From: Candidatus Saccharimonadota bacterium | Lineage (GTDB): Bacteria; Patescibacteriota; Saccharimonadia; Saccharimonadales; Saccharimonadaceae | DNA: 32,000 bases | NCBI RefSeq assembly: GCF_025273655.1 | Contig: NZ_CP045921.1 | Location: 930,001 to 962,000 of the forward strand | Direction of reading: 5' to 3' | Part shown: positions 6,759 to 22,277 of the stretch, piece by piece | Layout of the letters: each line of letters begins with the position of its first letter | Position numbering within the stretch: the first letter of the stretch is position 1 | Notes under the pieces: generated by a model | Databases searched by the model: none | Seen by the model: the letters and a program-made list of their open reading frames with translations, nothing else | What the model was told of the DNA's origin: nothing | Position numbers and translations under genes: made by a program

Positions 6759-8537
6759 CTAGTCCCGCTTGAGCATGACAGTGAACGCTTCGGACGGGAT
6801 ATCAACCTTACCAAACCGCTTCATCCGCTGCTTTCCTTTAGCCTGCTTCTGAAGTAACTTCTTACGACGCGATACGTCTCCACCATAAAGCTTGGCTGTC
6901 ACATCTTTGCGATAGGCAGATATGTCTTCGCGGGCGATGAATTTGCCCCCAATACCCGCTTGCAGGCTCACCTGGAAACTCTGGCGCGGTACCACATCTT
7001 TTAATTTCTTCACTATTTCTCGCCCAAGCCCTTGGCTTTCGCTTCGGTGAGCCATCACACTGAGTGCATCCACCATCTCGCCCGCCACATAGAAATCAAC
7101 TCGCACTAAATCTTCAGGCTTGTAGCCGCTTAGTTCGTAGTTGAAACTGCCGTAGCCGCTTGTCACACTTTTGAGTTGATCATAGAAGTCAGTCAGCAGA
7201 TTCGCGAGTGGCGCTTCAAAACTGATCAGCGCCCGCTCATCGATATAGCTCAGGTTTTTTTGCAAACCGCGTTTGCTCACGATCAGCTGGATCACCGCGC
7301 CGATATACTCGCTTGGCACCACGATTTCGCCATTTATCCATGGCTCGCGGATTTCTGCGATTTTCGTGACGACGGGCAGTTCGGAGGCTGATTTGATATC
7401 AATCTCTTCGCCGCTATTTAATGTCACCTGATAGTCGGTACTGGGATTGGTGACGACAAGGTCTAGATTGTATTCACGCTCCAGCCGCTCGCGAACAATA
7501 TCCATATGGAGCAGGCCTAGAAAACCGATGCGTACGCCGAAACCGAGCACCGGCGAATTCTCGGGCTCGAACTGCAAAGCACTATCGCTGAGACTGAGTT
7601 TTTCGACGGCGTCTTTGAGATCGTTATACTCTTCGTTGCTCACCGGGAAGAAGCCCGCATAGACAAACGGCTTTACGTGCTGATAACCAGGTAGTGGGCT
7701 ATCGGCGTGCGCTCGCTTGACGGTAATCGTATCGCCTACGCGTGCGTCTCTGGTAGTCTTGAGATTTGTGACAATATAGCCAATTTCTCCAGTACCAATA
7801 TCTGATTCTGATTTCATAATTGGACTCAGCGCACCTACTTCCAGCGCCAAGCCATCGGCACCGGTTGCAATCATTTGGATCGTATCACCTTTTCGAATTG
7901 TGCCGTCCACTACCCGAGCATACAAGATGACGCCGCGATAGTCGTCGTAGTAGCTGTCGAAAATCAATGCTCTCGTGGGTGCGGCCATATCACCAAGTGG
8001 CGGCTTGACACGCTCCACTACCGCATCGAGTACATCTGGCACACCTTCACCAGTTTTCGCACTAATCTTGAGGATATCAGATTCATCACAGCCAAGCAGA
8101 TTGATGACCTCCTTGCTGACACGCGGCACGTCAGCTGCTGGCAAATCGACTTTGTTTAGCACTGGTATGATAGTCAAGTTAGCCTCGAGCGCCAAGTAAA
8201 CGTTCGCCAGCGTCTGGGCTTGTATTCCCTGACTGGCATCGACAACCAGGATCGCTCCTTCGCAGGCCTGAAGACTACGCGACACCTCGTAGCTGAAATC
8301 GACATGTCCTGGTGTATCGATAAGATTGAGATCATTACCCTTGTACTGCATGCGAACCGGTGCGAGTTTAATCGTAATACCTTTTTCGCGTTCCAGCTCC
8401 ATACTGTCGAGCAGCTGGCTTTTCATATCGCGTTTCTGGACCGTCCCCGTCATCTCCATCATGCGATCCGCCAAGGTACTTTTGCCGTGGTCGATATGCG
8501 CGATGATGCAGAAATTTCGTATGCGTGACTGATCCAT
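6759..8537 (-). CDS. lepA: Translation elongation factor 4 (LepA)
   Basis: 592 aa. IRNFCIIAHIDHGKSTLADR, DTPGHVDF and NKVD GTPase motifs. Characteristic LepA C-terminal domain. Confidence 0.95.
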   Translation of the reverse strand: MDQSRIRNFCIIAHIDHGKSTLADRMMEMTGTVQKRDMKSQLLDSMELEREKGITIKLAPVRMQYKGNDLNLIDTPGHVDFSYEVSRSLQACEGAILVVDASQGIQAQTLANVYLALEANLTIIPVLNKVDLPAADVPRVSKEVINLLGCDESDILKISAKTGEGVPDVLDAVVERVKPPLGDMAAPTRALIFDSYYDDYRGVILYARVVDGTIRKGDTIQMIATGADGLALEVGALSPIMKSESDIGTGEIGYIVTNLKTTRDARVGDTITVKRAHADSPLPGYQHVKPFVYAGFFPVSNEEYNDLKDAVEKLSLSDSALQFEPENSPVLGFGVRIGFLGLLHMDIVRERLEREYNLDLVVTNPSTDYQVTLNSGEEIDIKSASELPVVTKIAEIREPWINGEIVVPSEYIGAVIQLIVSKRGLQKNLSYIDERALISFEAPLANLLTDFYDQLKSVTSGYGSFNYELSGYKPEDLVRVDFYVAGEMVDALSVMAHRSESQGLGREIVKKLKDVVPRQSFQVSLQAGIGGKFIAREDISAYRKDVTAKLYGGDVSRRKKLLQKQAKGKQRMKRFGKVDIPSEAFTVMLKRD

Positions 8538-15964: not shown

Positions 15965-16999
15965 CTACGATGCTTGCTCGTCGTCTCCCGACACTAATTT
16001 GTAATGCTCATAGAGTGAGGCAATCAGCCCTACAGTAAGACACTTTGCCGTATCGTCGTCCATAGACCGTGAAGCGGGCGACTGCTCCATCTTGCGACGC
16101 ACAATTTCCACGACCGAGGACTTACGACTATCAGTGGGGTTTGTCAGGCTTTTTACTAAATCATCGAAGCGCACAGCCTGATGATCATTCAAAACAAGGC
16201 GCTCCAAATGTATACCAGCGCTGCGTACAACCGCGTGCCATTTACGCAGCTCACCGAGCGCGAGATTCGCCTTTTTACTCCGATCTGCGCCATCGAAGAT
16301 ATGGGCGGCGAGTGCGCTGGCCTGGCCGTCTTTCAGTTCGGCAGCAAGTTCACCAGCAAAAAACAGCTTGGCTGAGCTCTGCCAGCCTTTATGTTTTTGC
16401 TGCTCAAGCCCATGGCTAATATATTCCTCTGCGCTTAAGCGGGGGATATTGTCGTATTCTTGCGATACAGAAACAGGTATGATATCAACAGAATCGACAA
16501 CACTCGCAGGTGTAGAAGCGGCGGACTCCTCTGTTATATCCGGCACAACATGTAGATGCGGAGTATAGTCATTAGGTGCAGCTTCCTGATCGAGCTCTTC
16601 GACACTGGCATGAGTATCAGTCCCCGTGGCTACAGGCCTCTCGTAACGTAGCAATGGATGGACTGCTCGCGCAACCAAACCCGGCATCACACGGTGGATC
16701 CGGGCTATTTCTTTTGCTCTTACACCAAATATATATGGAAGCGCTTGTCGATCGGTACCTCGTAAATCTTCGAGATAAGCGCTAAACAGTGCGTGTTGGT
16801 ACGTATCGTTAAGCGCATCGCTGTTAGCGCTGAAATATGCAGTAGCCAGCACGTCACCCACTGCTTGGGCAGAGAGAGCCGAGAAGCGCTCATGATATCC
16901 CGAGTCTACCTCATCAAGCAACTCCTTAAAATCACCCAAATCATATACGTTTGCTTCGTCCTGAGTTGGCCCGTGCTCATAGCGGATCTGGATTCCCAT
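15965..16999 (-). CDS. Hypothetical protein (344 aa) with an acidic central linker
   Basis: Long ORF with an AAGGGAG SD 7 nt upstream. Candidate promoter TTGCTG-17-TACATT in the 101-nt gap upstream. No family motif recognised. Confidence 0.6.
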   Translation of the reverse strand: MGIQIRYEHGPTQDEANVYDLGDFKELLDEVDSGYHERFSALSAQAVGDVLATAYFSANSDALNDTYQHALFSAYLEDLRGTDRQALPYIFGVRAKEIARIHRVMPGLVARAVHPLLRYERPVATGTDTHASVEELDQEAAPNDYTPHLHVVPDITEESAASTPASVVDSVDIIPVSVSQEYDNIPRLSAEEYISHGLEQQKHKGWQSSAKLFFAGELAAELKDGQASALAAHIFDGADRSKKANLALGELRKWHAVVRSAGIHLERLVLNDHQAVRFDDLVKSLTNPTDSRKSSVVEIVRRKMEQSPASRSMDDDTAKCLTVGLIASLYEHYKLVSGDDEQAS

Positions 17000-17100
17000 C
17001 GCTGACTCCCTTACTTTTTGTCAATGTAGCAACATATCTTGCAGACAGCAAGTTTTTAGGCAAATTTTACATCAATATTTCATCACGTAAGTATCGAGCA

Positions 17101-17415
17101 TCAAAAAAGTGAAATAGCCGACTCGGTATCGGCAGCAATCGCCCGAGTTGCAAGTATATTTTGAAGCTTCGTACGGTTTTCGTTGTTCAACTCATCCTGT
17201 GTCTCGAGCATCTGCAAAAACTCTATCGCCCTTGCCGCCGCTTGATTCACACCTTTCGCACGACGAGTGCTGGCAGGCTCCTGAACAACAAAGAATAACT
17301 CTCCTTGAGCCCCACCCATTTGCGTATATACCGAATCTAGTGCAGCACTCAGTATGGTATCGAGCTTTTTGACGGGATCCCCATCAAACCGATGTTTTGT
17401 AAGCCGATTGGCCAT
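17101..17415 (-). CDS. Hypothetical helical protein (~104 aa)
   Basis: ORF 17101..17424 starts at TTG; the first ATG is at 17415 (MANRLTKHRF). Lies 38-47 nt downstream of the ParB-like gene. No motif recognised. Confidence 0.5.
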   Translation of the reverse strand: MANRLTKHRFDGDPVKKLDTILSAALDSVYTQMGGAQGELFFVVQEPASTRRAKGVNQAAARAIEFLQMLETQDELNNENRTKLQNILATRAIAADTESAISLF

Positions 17416-17462
17416 GACAAGCAACTCATTCTTTACATAGTCTTCCTGCGTCTCGCCATGGG

Positions 17463-18248
17463 CTACTTTTGTTGAGTAGAGCGAAGTGTATGCTTCGGAT
17501 AATTGCCGAAATCTGCTACGAGATTAAATGGTAGTATGTCGCGCTCTGCATATATCCGCACCTCATCTGGCAATGAGGCAAAGGCAAGTGCACGAGACAC
17601 CACCTTTTCATCCACGCAGTAAAAATTTGCCACCGATTTGTAAGTAGGCTTTTGTCCTGCTCGAACTTTTTGTCGATAATACCGAGCAATCGAATTCGCC
17701 TCGTCGATACGCGGTGGGCGTTCCGAGATATTTTCGCGAAATTGCTTACCAAGCATCTCTTCAAACGACAGATTACAGTACACAGCCGACTGTACATATA
17801 TACGATCCGAATCAAACCCGTACTGCTTGGCAATATGAAGTAGTGCACGACGACGGCGATGACCGCTACCGCTCACATCAACAGTGTCAGACTCCGCGTC
17901 AAACAAGATCTGCTCTGGAACTGTATCATAGTGCGCTGCATGATCGTTCAAAAATGCATCAATATGGGCACGCTCGATCCGGTTCACAATCAGAGGCGTC
18001 CCTAGATCGAGTGCCTCAGTCACCATCTGGTAATCATCCAATTCAACGCCAGACACGAGGTTATCGTGGTCTCTTATCATAGATCGCGCCAACTCCTCGA
18101 TACCCCCCTGATCATACTCTGCGCGATACTGCGCTACTTCGTGGATACTATTGAGCTGCACAAGTTCGATGTTCGTCGGACCCACCTCTACACGGTCGTA
18201 CGGCAATTCATCTTGCACGGCAACTTGACCAAATATTTCCCTGCTCAT
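17463..18248 (-). CDS. Divergent ParB/Noc/Srx-like (ParB N-terminal domain + HTH) protein
   Basis: 261 aa. IEELARSM...PLIVNR (ParB box I-like), GSGHRRRRAL (GxxRxxA arginine patch), FRENISERPPRIDEANSIARYY, then an HTH-like TYKSVANFYCVDEKVVSRALAFASLPDEV. A ~35-aa insertion precedes the Arg patch. Confidence 0.6.
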   Translation of the reverse strand: MSREIFGQVAVQDELPYDRVEVGPTNIELVQLNSIHEVAQYRAEYDQGGIEELARSMIRDHDNLVSGVELDDYQMVTEALDLGTPLIVNRIERAHIDAFLNDHAAHYDTVPEQILFDAESDTVDVSGSGHRRRRALLHIAKQYGFDSDRIYVQSAVYCNLSFEEMLGKQFRENISERPPRIDEANSIARYYRQKVRAGQKPTYKSVANFYCVDEKVVSRALAFASLPDEVRIYAERDILPFNLVADFGNYPKHTLRSTQQK

Positions 18249-18976: not shown

Positions 18977-18988
18977 ACGCTTATGCTA
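18977..18988 (+). repeat. Copy 2 of the exact 12-mer ACGCTTATGCTA
   Basis: Exact match in the PAP2/YggT-like divergent region. Confidence 0.8.
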
Positions 18989-18991
18989 ACT

Positions 18992-19345
18992 ATGAACACA
19001 CCCGCACAAACACCCATGCCAGAACCACGGGGCAGCTACAAGCCCAAAAAACCCGTCGTCAAAACAAATCGTGTCATCATGACGCGCGCCATCTGGTACA
19101 TTTTTGGCGTTATCGCTTCTCTTCTCGCCCTCCGTATCGTCCTCCTCATGCTCAGCGCCAATCCAGAGACGCCATTTGTTAGTTTCGTCTACGACCTCAG
19201 TGGGATCTTCGTCGTACCGTTTTACGGTATTTTCGACCAACCAGACTATACTCGCTTCTATGTCGATACTAGCAGCATCGTCGCTATCGTCGTGTATTGG
19301 CTCCTGGCTGTCGGTCTCACCAAACTCGTCAACATAACGCGCTAA
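18992..19345 (+). CDS. YggT-family-like small membrane protein
   Basis: IWYIFGVIASLLALRIVLLMLSANPETPFVSFVYDLSGIFVVPFYGIF, plus a second C-terminal TM. The start is uncertain: ATGs occur at 18953, 18992, 19016 and 19079. Confidence 0.55.
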   Translation: MNTPAQTPMPEPRGSYKPKKPVVKTNRVIMTRAIWYIFGVIASLLALRIVLLMLSANPETPFVSFVYDLSGIFVVPFYGIFDQPDYTRFYVDTSSIVAIVVYWLLAVGLTKLVNITR

Positions 19346-19362
19346 TTCCACAGAAACCAAAC

Positions 19363-19381
19363 GACCACCTCGTAGGTGGCC
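19363..19381. terminator. Hairpin between convergent genes
   Basis: CCACC(T)..(A)GGTGG stem. On the minus strand it is followed by GTTTGGTTTCT. A second hairpin TAGCTGCA-tct-TGCAGCTA lies at 19413..19431. Confidence 0.4.
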
Positions 19382-19475
19382 ATATTTGGTGGGTATGTAG
19401 GTGGAGATGAGGTAGCTGCATCTTGCAGCTATATGTAGTGTAGCGAGCTTGTTTGAGAAAAAGCTGAAAAGAGCG

Positions 19476-21344
19476 CTAGTGTGTATATGTCTGCAATGGA
19501 CGAACAACGAGATAGTCAAATTCAGCACCCGCCGTCCAAGTACCGATACCGAACGCGCTACCGGTTTTGCCTGTTACCCAAGTACCAACCGGTTGCCACA
19601 CGGGAGAGCTATCTGGCGCCCAGTATGCAGTCACAGTAGCTCCAACCACTTTAAACGCAAGCTTCACCCATACGTTGGTAAGGTTGCGGCCACCGCCTAT
19701 AGTTCTGATAAAGACTTCGTCGAAATCATCCCGTGCTCGTATTACCCAGTTATTTTGGCCAAACCTTACTAGTTGCACGTGTATAGCCGAGCCGAAATAT
19801 GGATCGGGTGAGTTGCCTTGAGCTATCAATGACACTTCTTGGCCATCATGTGTCGCATCCGTAATTCTCACTCGTGTCTCCACCCAGTAATTTGTTGGTA
19901 GTACCGCGTTCTTCCGCGCAATACGCACATCCTGCCCACTACTTGAGCCATCGTATGCAACTGTAATCGTCGAACCTGTCGCCTGGCCCTGCGTCACACC
20001 ACCAACCTGATTCCATTTGGCAGTATCAAGCGAACCTGCAGTGTCAGTAAACTGGTCGTTTAGGAGTGTCGTAGACGTATCTACCGCTAGGTAGTTCACA
20101 TTACCCGCCGTATTAGACCACACCCCCGCAAACCCGGAGAGGCCAAATGTACTTGAAGTGATTGTACCTTGGTTTGGCTGACCAGCATGAATCAAGACCT
20201 TGAGATGCGAGCTAAAGAAGATAGGGTCATCTACAAAGAACCTGTAGTACGTCATCGCGAGTCCGCTCTGAGCACTGTCGCCCGCCCGACCAGCAGGGTA
20301 CCCGCCAACAGGCACATTATACCAACCGCCATTGAACGCATCTTCCGTACCGGATGAGCGCCACGAAGGATATGTTTCTCCATCTACATATACTTCGACA
20401 TTACCCTCGAGAATACCAGTATCACCACTTGCAGCATTGACTGCAATCCAGAGTGACTCCACCTGTCCGCTACCGTTGATGTCAACTACGGTTAGCTCGT
20501 CGTATGGCGAAGCTGCAGCAGCTTCAACACTATACATCTTGTAAGCAAGCTGCTGAGAACCGAGTCCCGCAAAATCATTTACAAGCGTGTAGTCAGCCGA
20601 GCCGAAGAATACAATATCTGTTGCAGTAGTGTTTTCTACTTCGACACGGAGATATTTCTGAAACGGCATATGCAGGTAGCGATAGGCGGACGACTCGCCA
20701 TTGCTGGTATTGCGCTTCGTGCGGCCAATACGCCGAGTTGCGTATTCTCCACCCTGAGATGCATACGCAAAGAAATCGTTGAGCGATAAATCCACGACAG
20801 CCGTCGTATCGTCATCTATATATATCCTGATTTTACCACCGTTTTCAGAAAAATCGCCCACACCGCCACCGCCAGAACTCGCCACCCAGATATGTTTTAG
20901 AACACCGGCAGTACCCCACGACTCAGCTAACAACACCTTTTTGGCACCAGTAGGGTTCGCGACTGGCGTGTGTGCTTTGCCCAGCTCGATAGGATACGAT
21001 ACTTGCTTTTCACCCGCAAGTCGCAGGGGAAATCCAGATAGGGTAGCTACGCCTGCCGAAGGCGGTACTGACTGTAGGGCAGTGTCGGCTTTGTCGAGGC
21101 TTGCTTGCACACTTGCGGAGAGATCAGTTTTCGGAATGCCCGCGCCTGGCTTAGTATACTTCGCCGACAAGTCAGTCGTCAGATTTTGGATTTTTGCCTG
21201 CGGCAATGCGCCGTCTACAACCTGTGTGGCACCTATCGCTCCAGCCTTTATATTTCCCTGCTCGTCATGAGCAACACGCAAATAGTCATTGAGGATATTT
21301 CCCCAATTTCCCATATCACCGCCCGGTTGTGGCAATCGTGCCAT
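19476..21344 (-). CDS. Three-module protein: phage tail-fibre-like N-terminus, DUF2961/GH172-like double jelly-roll, LamG/lectin-like C-terminal domain
   Basis: 622 aa. N-terminus MARLPQPGGDMGNWGNILNDYL followed by GAIGATQVVDGALPQAKIQNL. DUF2961-like motifs GGKIRIYIDDDTTAVVDLSLNDFFA, YRYLHMPFQKYLRVEVEN, VYVDGETYPSWRSSGTEDAFNGGW and YYRFFVDDPIFF. AAGGGGAG SD upstream. No signal peptide. Confidence 0.7.
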   Translation of the reverse strand: MARLPQPGGDMGNWGNILNDYLRVAHDEQGNIKAGAIGATQVVDGALPQAKIQNLTTDLSAKYTKPGAGIPKTDLSASVQASLDKADTALQSVPPSAGVATLSGFPLRLAGEKQVSYPIELGKAHTPVANPTGAKKVLLAESWGTAGVLKHIWVASSGGGGVGDFSENGGKIRIYIDDDTTAVVDLSLNDFFAYASQGGEYATRRIGRTKRNTSNGESSAYRYLHMPFQKYLRVEVENTTATDIVFFGSADYTLVNDFAGLGSQQLAYKMYSVEAAAASPYDELTVVDINGSGQVESLWIAVNAASGDTGILEGNVEVYVDGETYPSWRSSGTEDAFNGGWYNVPVGGYPAGRAGDSAQSGLAMTYYRFFVDDPIFFSSHLKVLIHAGQPNQGTITSSTFGLSGFAGVWSNTAGNVNYLAVDTSTTLLNDQFTDTAGSLDTAKWNQVGGVTQGQATGSTITVAYDGSSSGQDVRIARKNAVLPTNYWVETRVRITDATHDGQEVSLIAQGNSPDPYFGSAIHVQLVRFGQNNWVIRARDDFDEVFIRTIGGGRNLTNVWVKLAFKVVGATVTAYWAPDSSPVWQPVGTWVTGKTGSAFGIGTWTAGAEFDYLVVRPLQTYTH

Positions 21345-21370
21345 GTACTCCCCTTCTTCTAGTTACAACT

Positions 21371-21384
21371 ATCATAGCATAAGC
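21371..21384 (-). promoter_or_regulatory. Extended -10 for the GH172-like gene, including a 10-mer copy of the recurrent motif
   Basis: Minus strand reads GCTTATGCTATGAT. TGCTATGAT is identical to the element at 663..671. GCTTATGCTA forms a perfect inverted repeat with 21417..21426. Confidence 0.45.
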
Positions 21385-21536: not shown

Positions 21537-22277
21537 ATGGTTGAATCAAACGCCTACCAGGCACAACGCCAACAACTTTTACTTACAGGGGCAACAGTGT
21601 TTAGCGCAATCGTCGCCGCTGTGATCGTATCGACCATCGTCGTATCACAAATCATCCAGGGTCAGCTTGCAAGCGCCTTGTCTTCACAAGTTACTACGGG
21701 TGCGCCAACCACTACCGTCGCTGGTACATGTGTAGACACGAGCGCGCCAGCAGTAGCTGGTGAAGAAGCTGGTGCAAGCACTGTTGCCACAGTTGGTCAC
21801 TCTGCGGGCGCAGGATACTTGGTCAAGCCAATCAACGGTGCATGGGGAATCAAGGATTCATTCAACAGCAATACGACCGTGAACAACAGTACAACAACTA
21901 CCACAAACAACAACGAGACCCACACGACTCGTATCAATACTACTATCCGCGACAGCTTCAACAGCGGCTCTTACAACGATAACCGCGACCAAAGCGACAA
22001 TCGTGATCAGAGCGTTAGCGTTGATGGCAACACTCTCAATCTCAACTCTGGAAATACAAACCAGCAGAGCTGGACAAACAACCAGGCATGGAACACCACC
22101 AATAACACAACCACGAACACTACAACTAATACCGATAACAGCAACCATAGCGTCAACAACTCTGGTAACACCACCAGCCCAGTTACCAACACAACTACGA
22201 ACACTACAAATGTAGCAAATTCATACAATACAGCGAATCTACTCAGCGGTAATACTACAGCCGTAATCCTGCCATAA
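21537..22277 (+). CDS. Membrane-anchored Asn/Thr-rich low-complexity protein
   Basis: 246 aa. GAGGGAGAGG SD upstream. One N-terminal TM (LLLTGATVFSAIVAAVIVSTIVV). The C-terminal ~140 aa are mostly N/T/S, with a repeated DSFNS motif. Confidence 0.6.
   Translation: MVESNAYQAQRQQLLLTGATVFSAIVAAVIVSTIVVSQIIQGQLASALSSQVTTGAPTTTVAGTCVDTSAPAVAGEEAGASTVATVGHSAGAGYLVKPINGAWGIKDSFNSNTTVNNSTTTTTNNNETHTTRINTTIRDSFNSGSYNDNRDQSDNRDQSVSVDGNTLNLNSGNTNQQSWTNNQAWNTTNNTTTNTTTNTDNSNHSVNNSGNTTSPVTNTTTNTTNVANSYNTANLLSGNTTAVILP

Follow-up and report, generated by a model that had tools for sequence, protein, structure and literature searches.

MycGH172 of Candidatus Mycosynbacter amalyticus: a published D-arabinan hydrolase with the predicted architecture of a phage depolymerase fibre

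We analyzed a 32,000-nucleotide stretch (hereafter the window) of the genome of a Candidatus Saccharimonadota bacterium (RefSeq assembly GCF_025273655.1, contig NZ_CP045921.1, positions 930,001 to 962,000), in which a single open reading frame (ORF) with an ATG start at 19476-21344 on the minus strand encodes a protein of 622 amino acids (aa). This protein is full-length MycGH172, shown by others to be a retaining, trimeric exo-alpha-D-arabinofuranosidase of glycoside hydrolase family 172 (GH172) acting on arabinogalactan (AG) and lipoarabinomannan (LAM). Homology and predicted fold give it the architecture of a phage receptor-binding or depolymerase fibre, in which a conserved N-terminal head and a short stalk precede a GH172 core and a C-terminal beta-sandwich of the concanavalin A (ConA) type. 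The block formed by the GH172 core and the sandwich circulates among phage and prophage tail modules of Actinobacteria with high GC content, and in Saccharimonadia it is joined to their own head and inherited vertically as a chromosomal gene.

An exact look-up returned the protein as QHN43218.1 / WP_260763179.1, encoded on a contig of 1,081,308 bp and recorded as a 'DUF2961 domain-containing protein' of Candidatus Mycosynbacter amalyticus, which is a Saccharibacteria parasite that lyses Gordonia amarae. An earlier sequence-only reading of the window had called the protein an orphan, a description that fails on this named record and on the 57 homologs described below; its supposition that the organism might be a Saccharibacteria-like episymbiont of Actinobacteria was right. 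A DUF2961 homolog from M. amalyticus, GII36_05205, has been expressed and named MycGH172 (Al-Jourani et al., 2023, Nat Commun 14:2233; PMC10115798). Exo-alpha-D-arabinofuranosidase activity was reported on para-nitrophenyl-alpha-D-arabinofuranoside (pNP-alpha-D-Araf) as well as on AG, with lower activity on LAM and weak activity on Pseudomonas pilin arabinan, and the enzyme was found to be a trimer by size-exclusion chromatography with light scattering (SEC-LS), the theoretical trimer mass being 202,115 Da (PMC10115798). For three copies of M-G-(residues 2-622)-LEHHHHHH we computed 202,112.5 Da, within 3 Da of the published value, and it is because the construct mass agrees almost exactly that the 622-aa protein is equated with full-length MycGH172.

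Since the protein and its activity have been published, this basic finding adds nothing new. The central inference of the sequence-only reading, that a trimeric glycosidase could act on the host envelope, was correct and already in print; its further remark that the combination was not known to have been described survives in part, since a trimeric arabinofuranosidase is published and its role at the Gordonia wall has been discussed (PMC10115798), while no description of the fibre architecture or of the phage-tail kinship was found in the searchable literature. The searchable text and supplements of PMC10115798 make no mention of a fibre-like N-terminus, a C-terminal sandwich or phage-tail relatives, and literature searches for Saccharibacteria with GH172, Saccharibacteria with tail fiber, and GH172 with phage and tail returned nothing relevant. 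What appears to be new is the fibre architecture, together with the head family and the occurrence, for the first time, of GH172 in a phage-tail context.

The conserved head comprises residues 1-36 (21237-21344, minus strand) and follows the pattern MARLPQPGGDxGxWGxILNDYLxxxHxxDGxLK, which we assign as a fibre adaptor from its invariance and homology. M1, R3, L4, P5, D10, W14, G15, L18, N19, L22 and G30 are invariant across proteins with unrelated bodies, and the head is nearly invariant among orthologs in Saccharibacteria whose overall identity is no more than about 50%. It is followed by a short stalk (residues 37-100; 21045-21236, minus strand) with one fibre repeat of ~35 aa, YTKPGAGIPKTDLSASVQASLDKADTALQ, assigned by repeat homology and present in 2-3 copies in many other proteins. 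Among orthologs, the stalk between head and GH172 block can be as short as about 60 aa or as long as about 280 aa, the differences in length being 0-200 aa.

Matches to this N-terminus lead to phages of Actinobacteria. When residues 1-131 were compared by tblastn with 50,697 phage genomes, 21 records were matched, nearly all of them actinophages. Residues 1-103 are matched by a collagen-like fibre of Streptomyces phage BRock (E=7e-12). For the repeat, at residues 59-104, the identity to minor tail proteins of Gordonia and Curtobacterium phages is 58-66%, and PHROG tail families match the N-terminus only weakly (E=4e-4). Fibre ancestry is indicated by fold searches as well, that of BFVD returning mostly actinophage minor tail proteins, four Gordonia phages among them, and that of the PDB matching the central fibre of mycobacteriophage Douge (E~1e-9). 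As a side observation, the annotated start of BRock gp186 (locus L087, 7791-8738) overlaps a tRNA-Lys gene and the head starts 70 codons downstream, so that locus position 8001 is probably the true start.

The head family has no entry in the Pfam releases examined. An exhaustive search with a head profile found 8,890 clusters at E<=1e-3, with 5,005 passing E<=1e-10, and a word-indexed search with the same profile returned mostly fragments of <=105 aa. Among the top 145 head matches, 107 begin with 'MARLP'; 92 are long, and between them these have at least 56 unrelated distal modules. Tailspike-like, pectate-lyase-like, SGNH/GDSL and PTR/DUF5907 proteins all bear this head. In two Saccharibacteria, head-bearing paralogs of 768 and 741 aa lie directly upstream of the GH172 ortholog (L005 6104-8410 and L010 7685-9910), one with a tailspike-like body (phrog_27786, E=3e-45) and the other with only weaker matches to phage tail-protein PHROGs. 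A conserved N-terminal adaptor combined with exchangeable bodies is the pattern of phage receptor-binding proteins. MycGH172 shares with depolymerase tail fibres and tailspikes, and with actinophage minor tail proteins, the conserved adaptor, the exchangeable distal modules, the trimeric enzymatic body that acts on a glycan of the host surface and the lack of a signal peptide; it differs from depolymerase tailspikes in having the GH172 double jelly roll rather than a beta-helix, and in being a stable bacterial chromosomal gene.

The named proteins with this head come from Saccharibacteria, together with one labelled Mycobacteroides abscessus, and a strict head pattern was found in only six IMG/VR contigs, of 34 to 70% GC. 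The protein in the assembly labelled M. abscessus (L092 10001-12958) is a pectate-lyase-like protein of 985 aa, and its locus has 62% GC and carries genes for a relaxase, a TrwB-like coupling protein, a sortase and a pilin-like protein. A role as a prophage tailspike is not supported for this protein, its locus resembling a conjugative element; because of the relaxase, TrwB-like, sortase and pilin-like genes, the head appears to occur also on an actinobacterial conjugative element.

The catalytic core is a GH172 (DUF2961) double jelly roll at residues ~103-412 (20109-21038, minus strand), delimited by Pfam, Foldseek and model confidence. Pfam PF11175 (DUF2961) matches residues 172-392 (E=2.6e-34; 119.2 bits against a curated cut-off of 27), newer precomputed Pfam labels on the core are GH172_1st and GH172_2nd, and an NCBIfam scan of the whole protein gave no match. 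By sequence the core matches the PDB entries 4KQ7, 7V1V (alphaFFase1) and 8AH3. An AlphaFold2 monomer model built with 48 homologs has a mean predicted local distance difference test score (pLDDT) of 87.8, exceeding 90 from residue 110 on, and the top seven Foldseek matches of this model in the PDB are all GH172, every solved enzyme of the family being matched (7V1V, 8AH3, 4KQ7 and 8IC8; E from 7e-17 to 5e-14; template modelling (TM) scores to the target of 0.55-0.65).

The active site of alphaFFase1 comprises the acid/base Glu270, the nucleophile Glu291, Asp292, Trp298 and the calcium ligand Asn272 (PMC8605356). In a HMMER alignment to 7V1V, Glu313 of the LEGN motif (20406-20408, minus strand) corresponds to Glu270 and Asn315 to Asn272, and Glu334-Asp335 of the GTED motif (20340-20345, minus strand) correspond to Glu291 and Asp292, Trp341 being the counterpart of Trp298. 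E313, E334 and D335 are invariant in 48/48 family members; together with N315 and W341 they form a set that is invariant or nearly so across the family, and all phage and prophage copies keep it. The position of Tyr187, contributed by the neighbouring subunit, is aromatic, being F247 here and Y in most orthologs. In GH172 the trimer is the minimal catalytic unit, the active sites lying at protomer interfaces.

MycGH172 has in common with alphaFFase1 (7V1V), DgGH172c/Dg79 (8AH3), BACUNI_00161 (4KQ7) and the exo-alpha-D-arabinofuranosidase ExoMA1 (8IC8) the double jelly-roll core, the catalytic residues and the trimeric basic unit. The characterised enzymes are, however, only 18-22% identical to it, are about 370-460 aa long, end in a C-terminal helix and form hexamers or dodecamers, whereas MycGH172 has an additional fibre N-terminus of 100 aa and an additional beta-sandwich of 200 aa, stays a trimer and does without the aromatic platform that Trp267 provides at the -1/+1 subsites of alphaFFase1. 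Trp267 aligns to T309/G310 within T309-G310-I311-L312, and since MycGH172 has been reported active, this residue is not family-defining. The missing platform might be taken to mean that the physiological substrate is some other alpha-furanoside, for instance a fructan or a difructose anhydride, on the model of alphaFFase1, or else an arabinosylated pilin; that alpha-D-fructofuranosidases belong to GH172 too, and that activity is lower on LAM and only weak on Pseudomonas pilin arabinan, would agree with this. We hold it to be very improbable, as the activity on AG and pNP-alpha-D-Araf is published, Gordonia and the hosts of the phage relatives are without exception high-GC Actinobacteria, Mycolicibacterium included, and no fructan-utilisation genes are found nearby in the window.

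The C-terminal 200 aa (residues 425-622; 19479-20072, minus strand) can be assigned with high confidence, at the level of the predicted fold, to the ConA-like superfamily, as a module that may bind carbohydrate or shape the active site. Modelled by themselves, residues 410-622 reach a pLDDT of 94 and a predicted TM score (pTM) of 0.90, and Foldseek matches this model to the C-terminal domain of GH43 beta-xylosidases, legume lectins, GH16 and ERGIC-53/VIP36 (TMq 0.5-0.65; E down to 3e-8). W444, T495, W533, D539, F541 and W589 are invariant in this module. No Pfam match to it was obtained at E<=1, DUF2961 being the only family found in the protein, and its profile matched nothing among PDB sequences at E<=10. 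A relationship of the module to the phrog_2804-like ORF at 39-632 of the window was considered and rejected (profile-profile probability 0.1%). Fusions of DUF2961 to ConA, LamG or carbohydrate-binding module (CBM) domains have been catalogued (Krupovic, Makarova and Koonin, 2022), and the pairing of DUF2961 with a ConA-like or carbohydrate-binding domain is common to that catalogue and to MycGH172. Of what the sequence-only reading had proposed for the protein itself, the tail-fibre-like N-terminus and the DUF2961/GH172 core have been borne out, the catalytic acids of the core being intact, and the LamG/concanavalin-type C-terminus holds as a fold but found no match by sequence profile.

All 57 homologs that span the GH172 block in a large protein database keep residues ~100-621 as a unit (57/57), and segment mapping yields three evolutionary units, namely the head (1-36), the variable stalk and the block (~100-621). 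With one genome taken per GTDB species, the full block turns up in some 12 species of Saccharibacteria and in two of Mycolicibacterium; all other phyla have the GH172 core only, at 25-33% identity. Outside Saccharibacteria, the nearest relatives of the block are found in a prophage tail module of M. palauense and on four phage-like contigs. The homolog of M. palauense (L016; 559 aa, 43% identity over residues 96-612) begins 10 nt after a tape measure gene of 2,414 aa and is followed by five minor tail genes, with tail terminator and tail assembly chaperone genes upstream. The protein of Mycolicibacterium sp. S2-37 (L015) has an N-terminus belonging to the phage-only family phrog_6813 (E=4e-22), and a phage Ku-like gene is located near it. 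Four more distant homologs, on contigs of 60-68% GC, lie among phage structural genes: P0050 lies with Sipho_Gp37, an LGFP-type lysin and a pectate-lyase tailspike, P0053 with Phage_cement_3, HNH, PTR + Phage_tail_C and a GDSL esterase, P0055 near a PhageMin_Tail tape measure, and P0056 with Baseplate_J_C, a holin, an M15 lysin and a repressor. The M. palauense tape measure (L016 2633-9877) also contains a segment (residues 1876-2061) matching the ADP-ribosyltransferase exoenzyme toxin family phrog_3895, as well as endolysin-like segments.

Deposited phages add little to this distribution. In tblastn against the 50,697 phage genomes the GH172 + sandwich block found no close homolog, giving only four weak matches (24-29% identity) on unannotated gut 'Bacteriophage sp.' contigs, and a scan of IMG/VR with the family alignment found no relative. 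The published survey described the family as 'not viruses' and 'not associated with proviruses' (Krupovic et al., 2022); here one subfamily is located in prophage and phage tail modules, a finding at odds with the view in print that DUF2961 has no association with viruses. A phage enzyme attacking the same polymer is known from Gordonia phage GMA6, whose GH183 (DUF4185) endo-D-arabinanase acts, like MycGH172, on the D-arabinan of Mycobacteriales, but belongs to another family and fold, is endo-acting and lies in the lysis cassette rather than among tail genes (PMC10115798).

In M. amalyticus, the GH172 gene is surrounded by housekeeping genes. The window encodes GrpE, HrcA, TatC, Adk, LepA, MurJ, FtsH, TilS, DinB, PAP2, YggT and CcdA-thioredoxin, as well as a fasciclin protein, MarR, Ham1, DJ-1 and DnaQ-GIY-YIG, and the genes for PAP2, YggT, DinB, TilS, FtsH and CcdA-thioredoxin are those near the GH172 gene. 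Orthologs with 47-72% identity in other Saccharibacteria adjoin the same housekeeping genes (DinB, TilS, FtsH, MurJ and LepA). The uncharacterised neighbours have no PHROG match, and no phage genes were found within about 15 kb on either side. A location inside a prophage, complete or otherwise, is rejected on this context and on the conserved synteny. The sequence-only reading had seen no phage gene on either side, which is true over that distance and does not extend to the edge of the window, where the plus-strand ORF at 39-632 matches the phage virion/tail family phrog_2804 (E=6e-20).

This ORF is the last of eight co-directional fibre-like genes forming an island that takes in the 9 kb upstream of the window (L091 1238-9928) and lies 19-28 kb from the GH172 gene, with housekeeping genes in between. 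Two of the eight begin with head variants: the variant QRLPIVNSDDGTWGDLLRQYL opens two island genes, and the variant VADQRLPIVNSDDGTWGDLLRQYL is recorded at the starts of a 709-aa protein (matching tail fiber/minor tail PHROGs and Phage_tail_C) and a 421-aa protein. The island also encodes two phrog_2804 'virion structural protein' paralogs, as well as a 183-aa protein resembling tail fibres. It can be speculated that MycGH172 belongs to a phage-derived particle or a prophage of M. amalyticus, as a fibre for a tailocin, for a particle resembling a gene-transfer agent, or for the 8.6 nm tube-like conduit between parasite and host that has been reported by cryo-electron tomography, and that it is released or assembled without classical secretion. 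The island with its head variants and its matches to tail-fibre PHROGs and Phage_tail_C, the conduit itself and the conservation of a 'tail fibre-like protein' beside the Pam pilus operon all fit such a particle, which would also account for the missing signal peptide. We nevertheless judge it improbable: no capsid, portal, terminase, tube, sheath, tape measure or baseplate hub gene was seen in the window and the 9 kb upstream of it, housekeeping genes part the GH172 gene from the island, and the GH172 gene is syntenic across species.

Two observations accompany the island. A preprint places the 'tail fibre-like protein' consistently beside the Pam pilus operon across genomes of the candidate phyla radiation (CPR) (bioRxiv 10.64898/2026.03.03.709456); by accession order, this operon is about 100 genes from the GH172 locus. 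Directly after the island, the plus-strand gene at 705-2459 encodes a 584-aa protein with a signal- or anchor-like hydrophobic N-terminal segment and a BD-FAE / Abhydrolase_3 esterase domain, which may be a host-envelope (acyl or mycolyl) esterase.

The reading of MycGH172 that we prefer, with a confidence a little better than even, is that of a domesticated phage depolymerase fibre at the parasite-host surface. The 36-residue head would dock the fibre onto a structure of the parasite, and the short repeat stalk would lead from it to the trimeric enzymatic body and the distal ConA-like sandwich, the whole working outside the cytoplasm, where the parasite touches Gordonia. At that site the arabinan would be held or positioned by the distal sandwich while the GH172 trimer trims alpha-linked termini, removing terminal alpha-D-arabinofuranose from the D-arabinan of the AG and LAM of mycolic-acid bacteria; such trimming may aid attachment or penetration and would free arabinose. 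We favour this model because the paralogs carry types of enzyme that are sensible only outside the cell, because the phage homologs must act from outside, because MycGH172 as a plain trimer acts on the polymer, unlike the dodecamer ExoMA1 on intact LAM, and because aftB, which encodes the terminal arabinan transferase, is the locus of one Gordonia mutant that resists the parasite.

Several points weigh against this model. As the sequence-only reading had noted, no signal peptide was found, nor was any membrane segment (the 19-residue Kyte-Doolittle mean peaks at 1.16, and the first 40 residues are hydrophilic), and cysteine is absent from the protein. Al-Jourani et al. predict that MycGH172 is not secreted and favour the cleavage of imported oligosaccharides in the cytoplasm, with local remodelling of the Gordonia wall as their alternative (PMC10115798). 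Several characterised GH172 enzymes are cytoplasmic, ExoMA1 and alphaFFase1 being intracellular without signal sequences. The head and stalk have low pLDDT, and hence low confidence, when modelled as a monomer, and the carbohydrate-binding role of the sandwich is putative, proposed from its fold. A rough neighbour-joining (NJ) tree, which bears no support values, places phage and prophage sequences basally and interleaved with Saccharibacteria; it is compatible with capture from phages of the hosts and later exchange, the direction of transfer not being settled. The step from GII36_05205 to QHN43218.1 was inferred from the mass match and from the single DUF2961 homolog of the paper, not from a record, because GII36_05205, QHN43218 and WP_260763179 were looked up in the supplements of the paper and not found.

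The published preference for the cytoplasm can be extended to a full rival reading. A surface GH183 endo-arabinanase would free arabino-oligosaccharides from Gordonia, which would be imported and then cut to arabinose by MycGH172 inside the parasite; the fibre-like N-terminus would be nothing but a stalk for trimerisation, retained by inheritance, and the active site would owe its shape to the sandwich, as GH43 xylosidases show. The lack of a signal peptide, transmembrane segment and cysteines would be expected of such an enzyme, ExoMA1 and alphaFFase1 offer precedents, and by fold the C-terminal module comes closest to GH43 C-terminal domains, which are not lectins. We regard this reading as possible and rather unlikely: the head is conserved from Met1 in thousands of proteins, whose depolymerase-type bodies have no obvious cytoplasmic substrate, the closest kin of the enzymatic block are virion tail-module proteins that act from outside, and activity on polymeric AG and LAM sets the plain trimer apart from the cytoplasmic dodecamer ExoMA1, which does not act on intact LAM.

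At the level of the gene, the translation of 19476-21344 holds every motif quoted in the sequence-only reading (MARLPQPGGDMGNWGNILNDYL, GAIGATQVVDGALPQAKIQNL, KIRIYIDDDTTAVVDLSLNDFF, YLHMPFQKYLRVEVEN, VYVDGETYPSWRSSGTEDAFNGGW and YRFFVDDPIFF). A ribosome-binding site, GAAGGGGAG (21348-21356, minus strand), can be read 3 nt 5' of the ATG at 21344, and this start is supported as well by orthologs conserved from residue 1. Further upstream, TGCTATGAT (21371-21379, minus strand) is an extended -10-like element and a candidate promoter; since a consensus scan 5' of the gene gave no full sigma-70 match, this assignment is an inference only. A terminator-like hairpin with a 10-pair stem lies ~90 nt 3' of the stop codon (19361-19383, minus strand), found as a pattern match only. 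One flanking gene, YggT, is convergent and the other, encoding a membrane protein rich in Asn and Thr, is divergent; because of this arrangement, together with the gene's own ribosome-binding site and terminator-like hairpin, the GH172 gene looks monocistronic. Its GC content of 0.50 is the same as in the rest of the window, and its composition is not anomalous.

The divergent gene (21537-22277, plus strand) encodes a 246-aa protein whose N-terminus has a membrane segment and whose tail is extremely rich in Asn and Thr; it has no family match. In another Saccharibacteria genome (L012), a homolog that is 84% identical over the best tblastn segment is located near the ortholog. On the convergent side, the plus-strand ORF at 18953-19345 matches YggT and is kept in a related genome, and the public Logan contig calls give 18986-19528 on the minus strand instead, a call that is probably spurious because the overlapping plus-strand ORF matches YggT and is conserved in the relative. 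Between DinB and PAP2, three ORFs of 344, 107 and 261 aa (15965-18248, minus strand) have no Pfam or PHROG match and no counterpart in the nine syntenic Saccharibacteria loci examined, and this segment looks like a lineage-specific insertion.

In a broader and more tentative proposal, whose chances we put somewhat short of even, Saccharimonadia parasitic on Actinobacteria may have captured the receptor-binding or depolymerase fibres of the phages of their hosts and mounted them on the 36-residue head as exchangeable, enzyme-armed devices for host recognition, placed either on the surface of the epibiont or on a conduit of phage origin. Within this set MycGH172 would be the one specific for arabinan, and GH172 would include unrecognised tail-associated depolymerases of mycobacteriophages.

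What remains novel, namely the fibre architecture, the head family and the phage-tail contexts of GH172, is in our view moderately interesting. GH172 has been proposed as the cellular sister of the double-jelly-roll capsid proteins and reported absent from viruses, a statement that its occurrence in structural modules of tailed phages qualifies. That a GH172 gene stands between the tape measure and minor tail genes of a Mycolicibacterium prophage points to arabinan-trimming tail enzymes in phages that infect mycolic-acid bacteria, which would bear on the biology of phage receptors and on phage therapy in mycobacteria. For the question of how Saccharibacteria recognise and breach their hosts, the head family supplies concrete candidates, and the head itself offers a handle for finding the docking partner.

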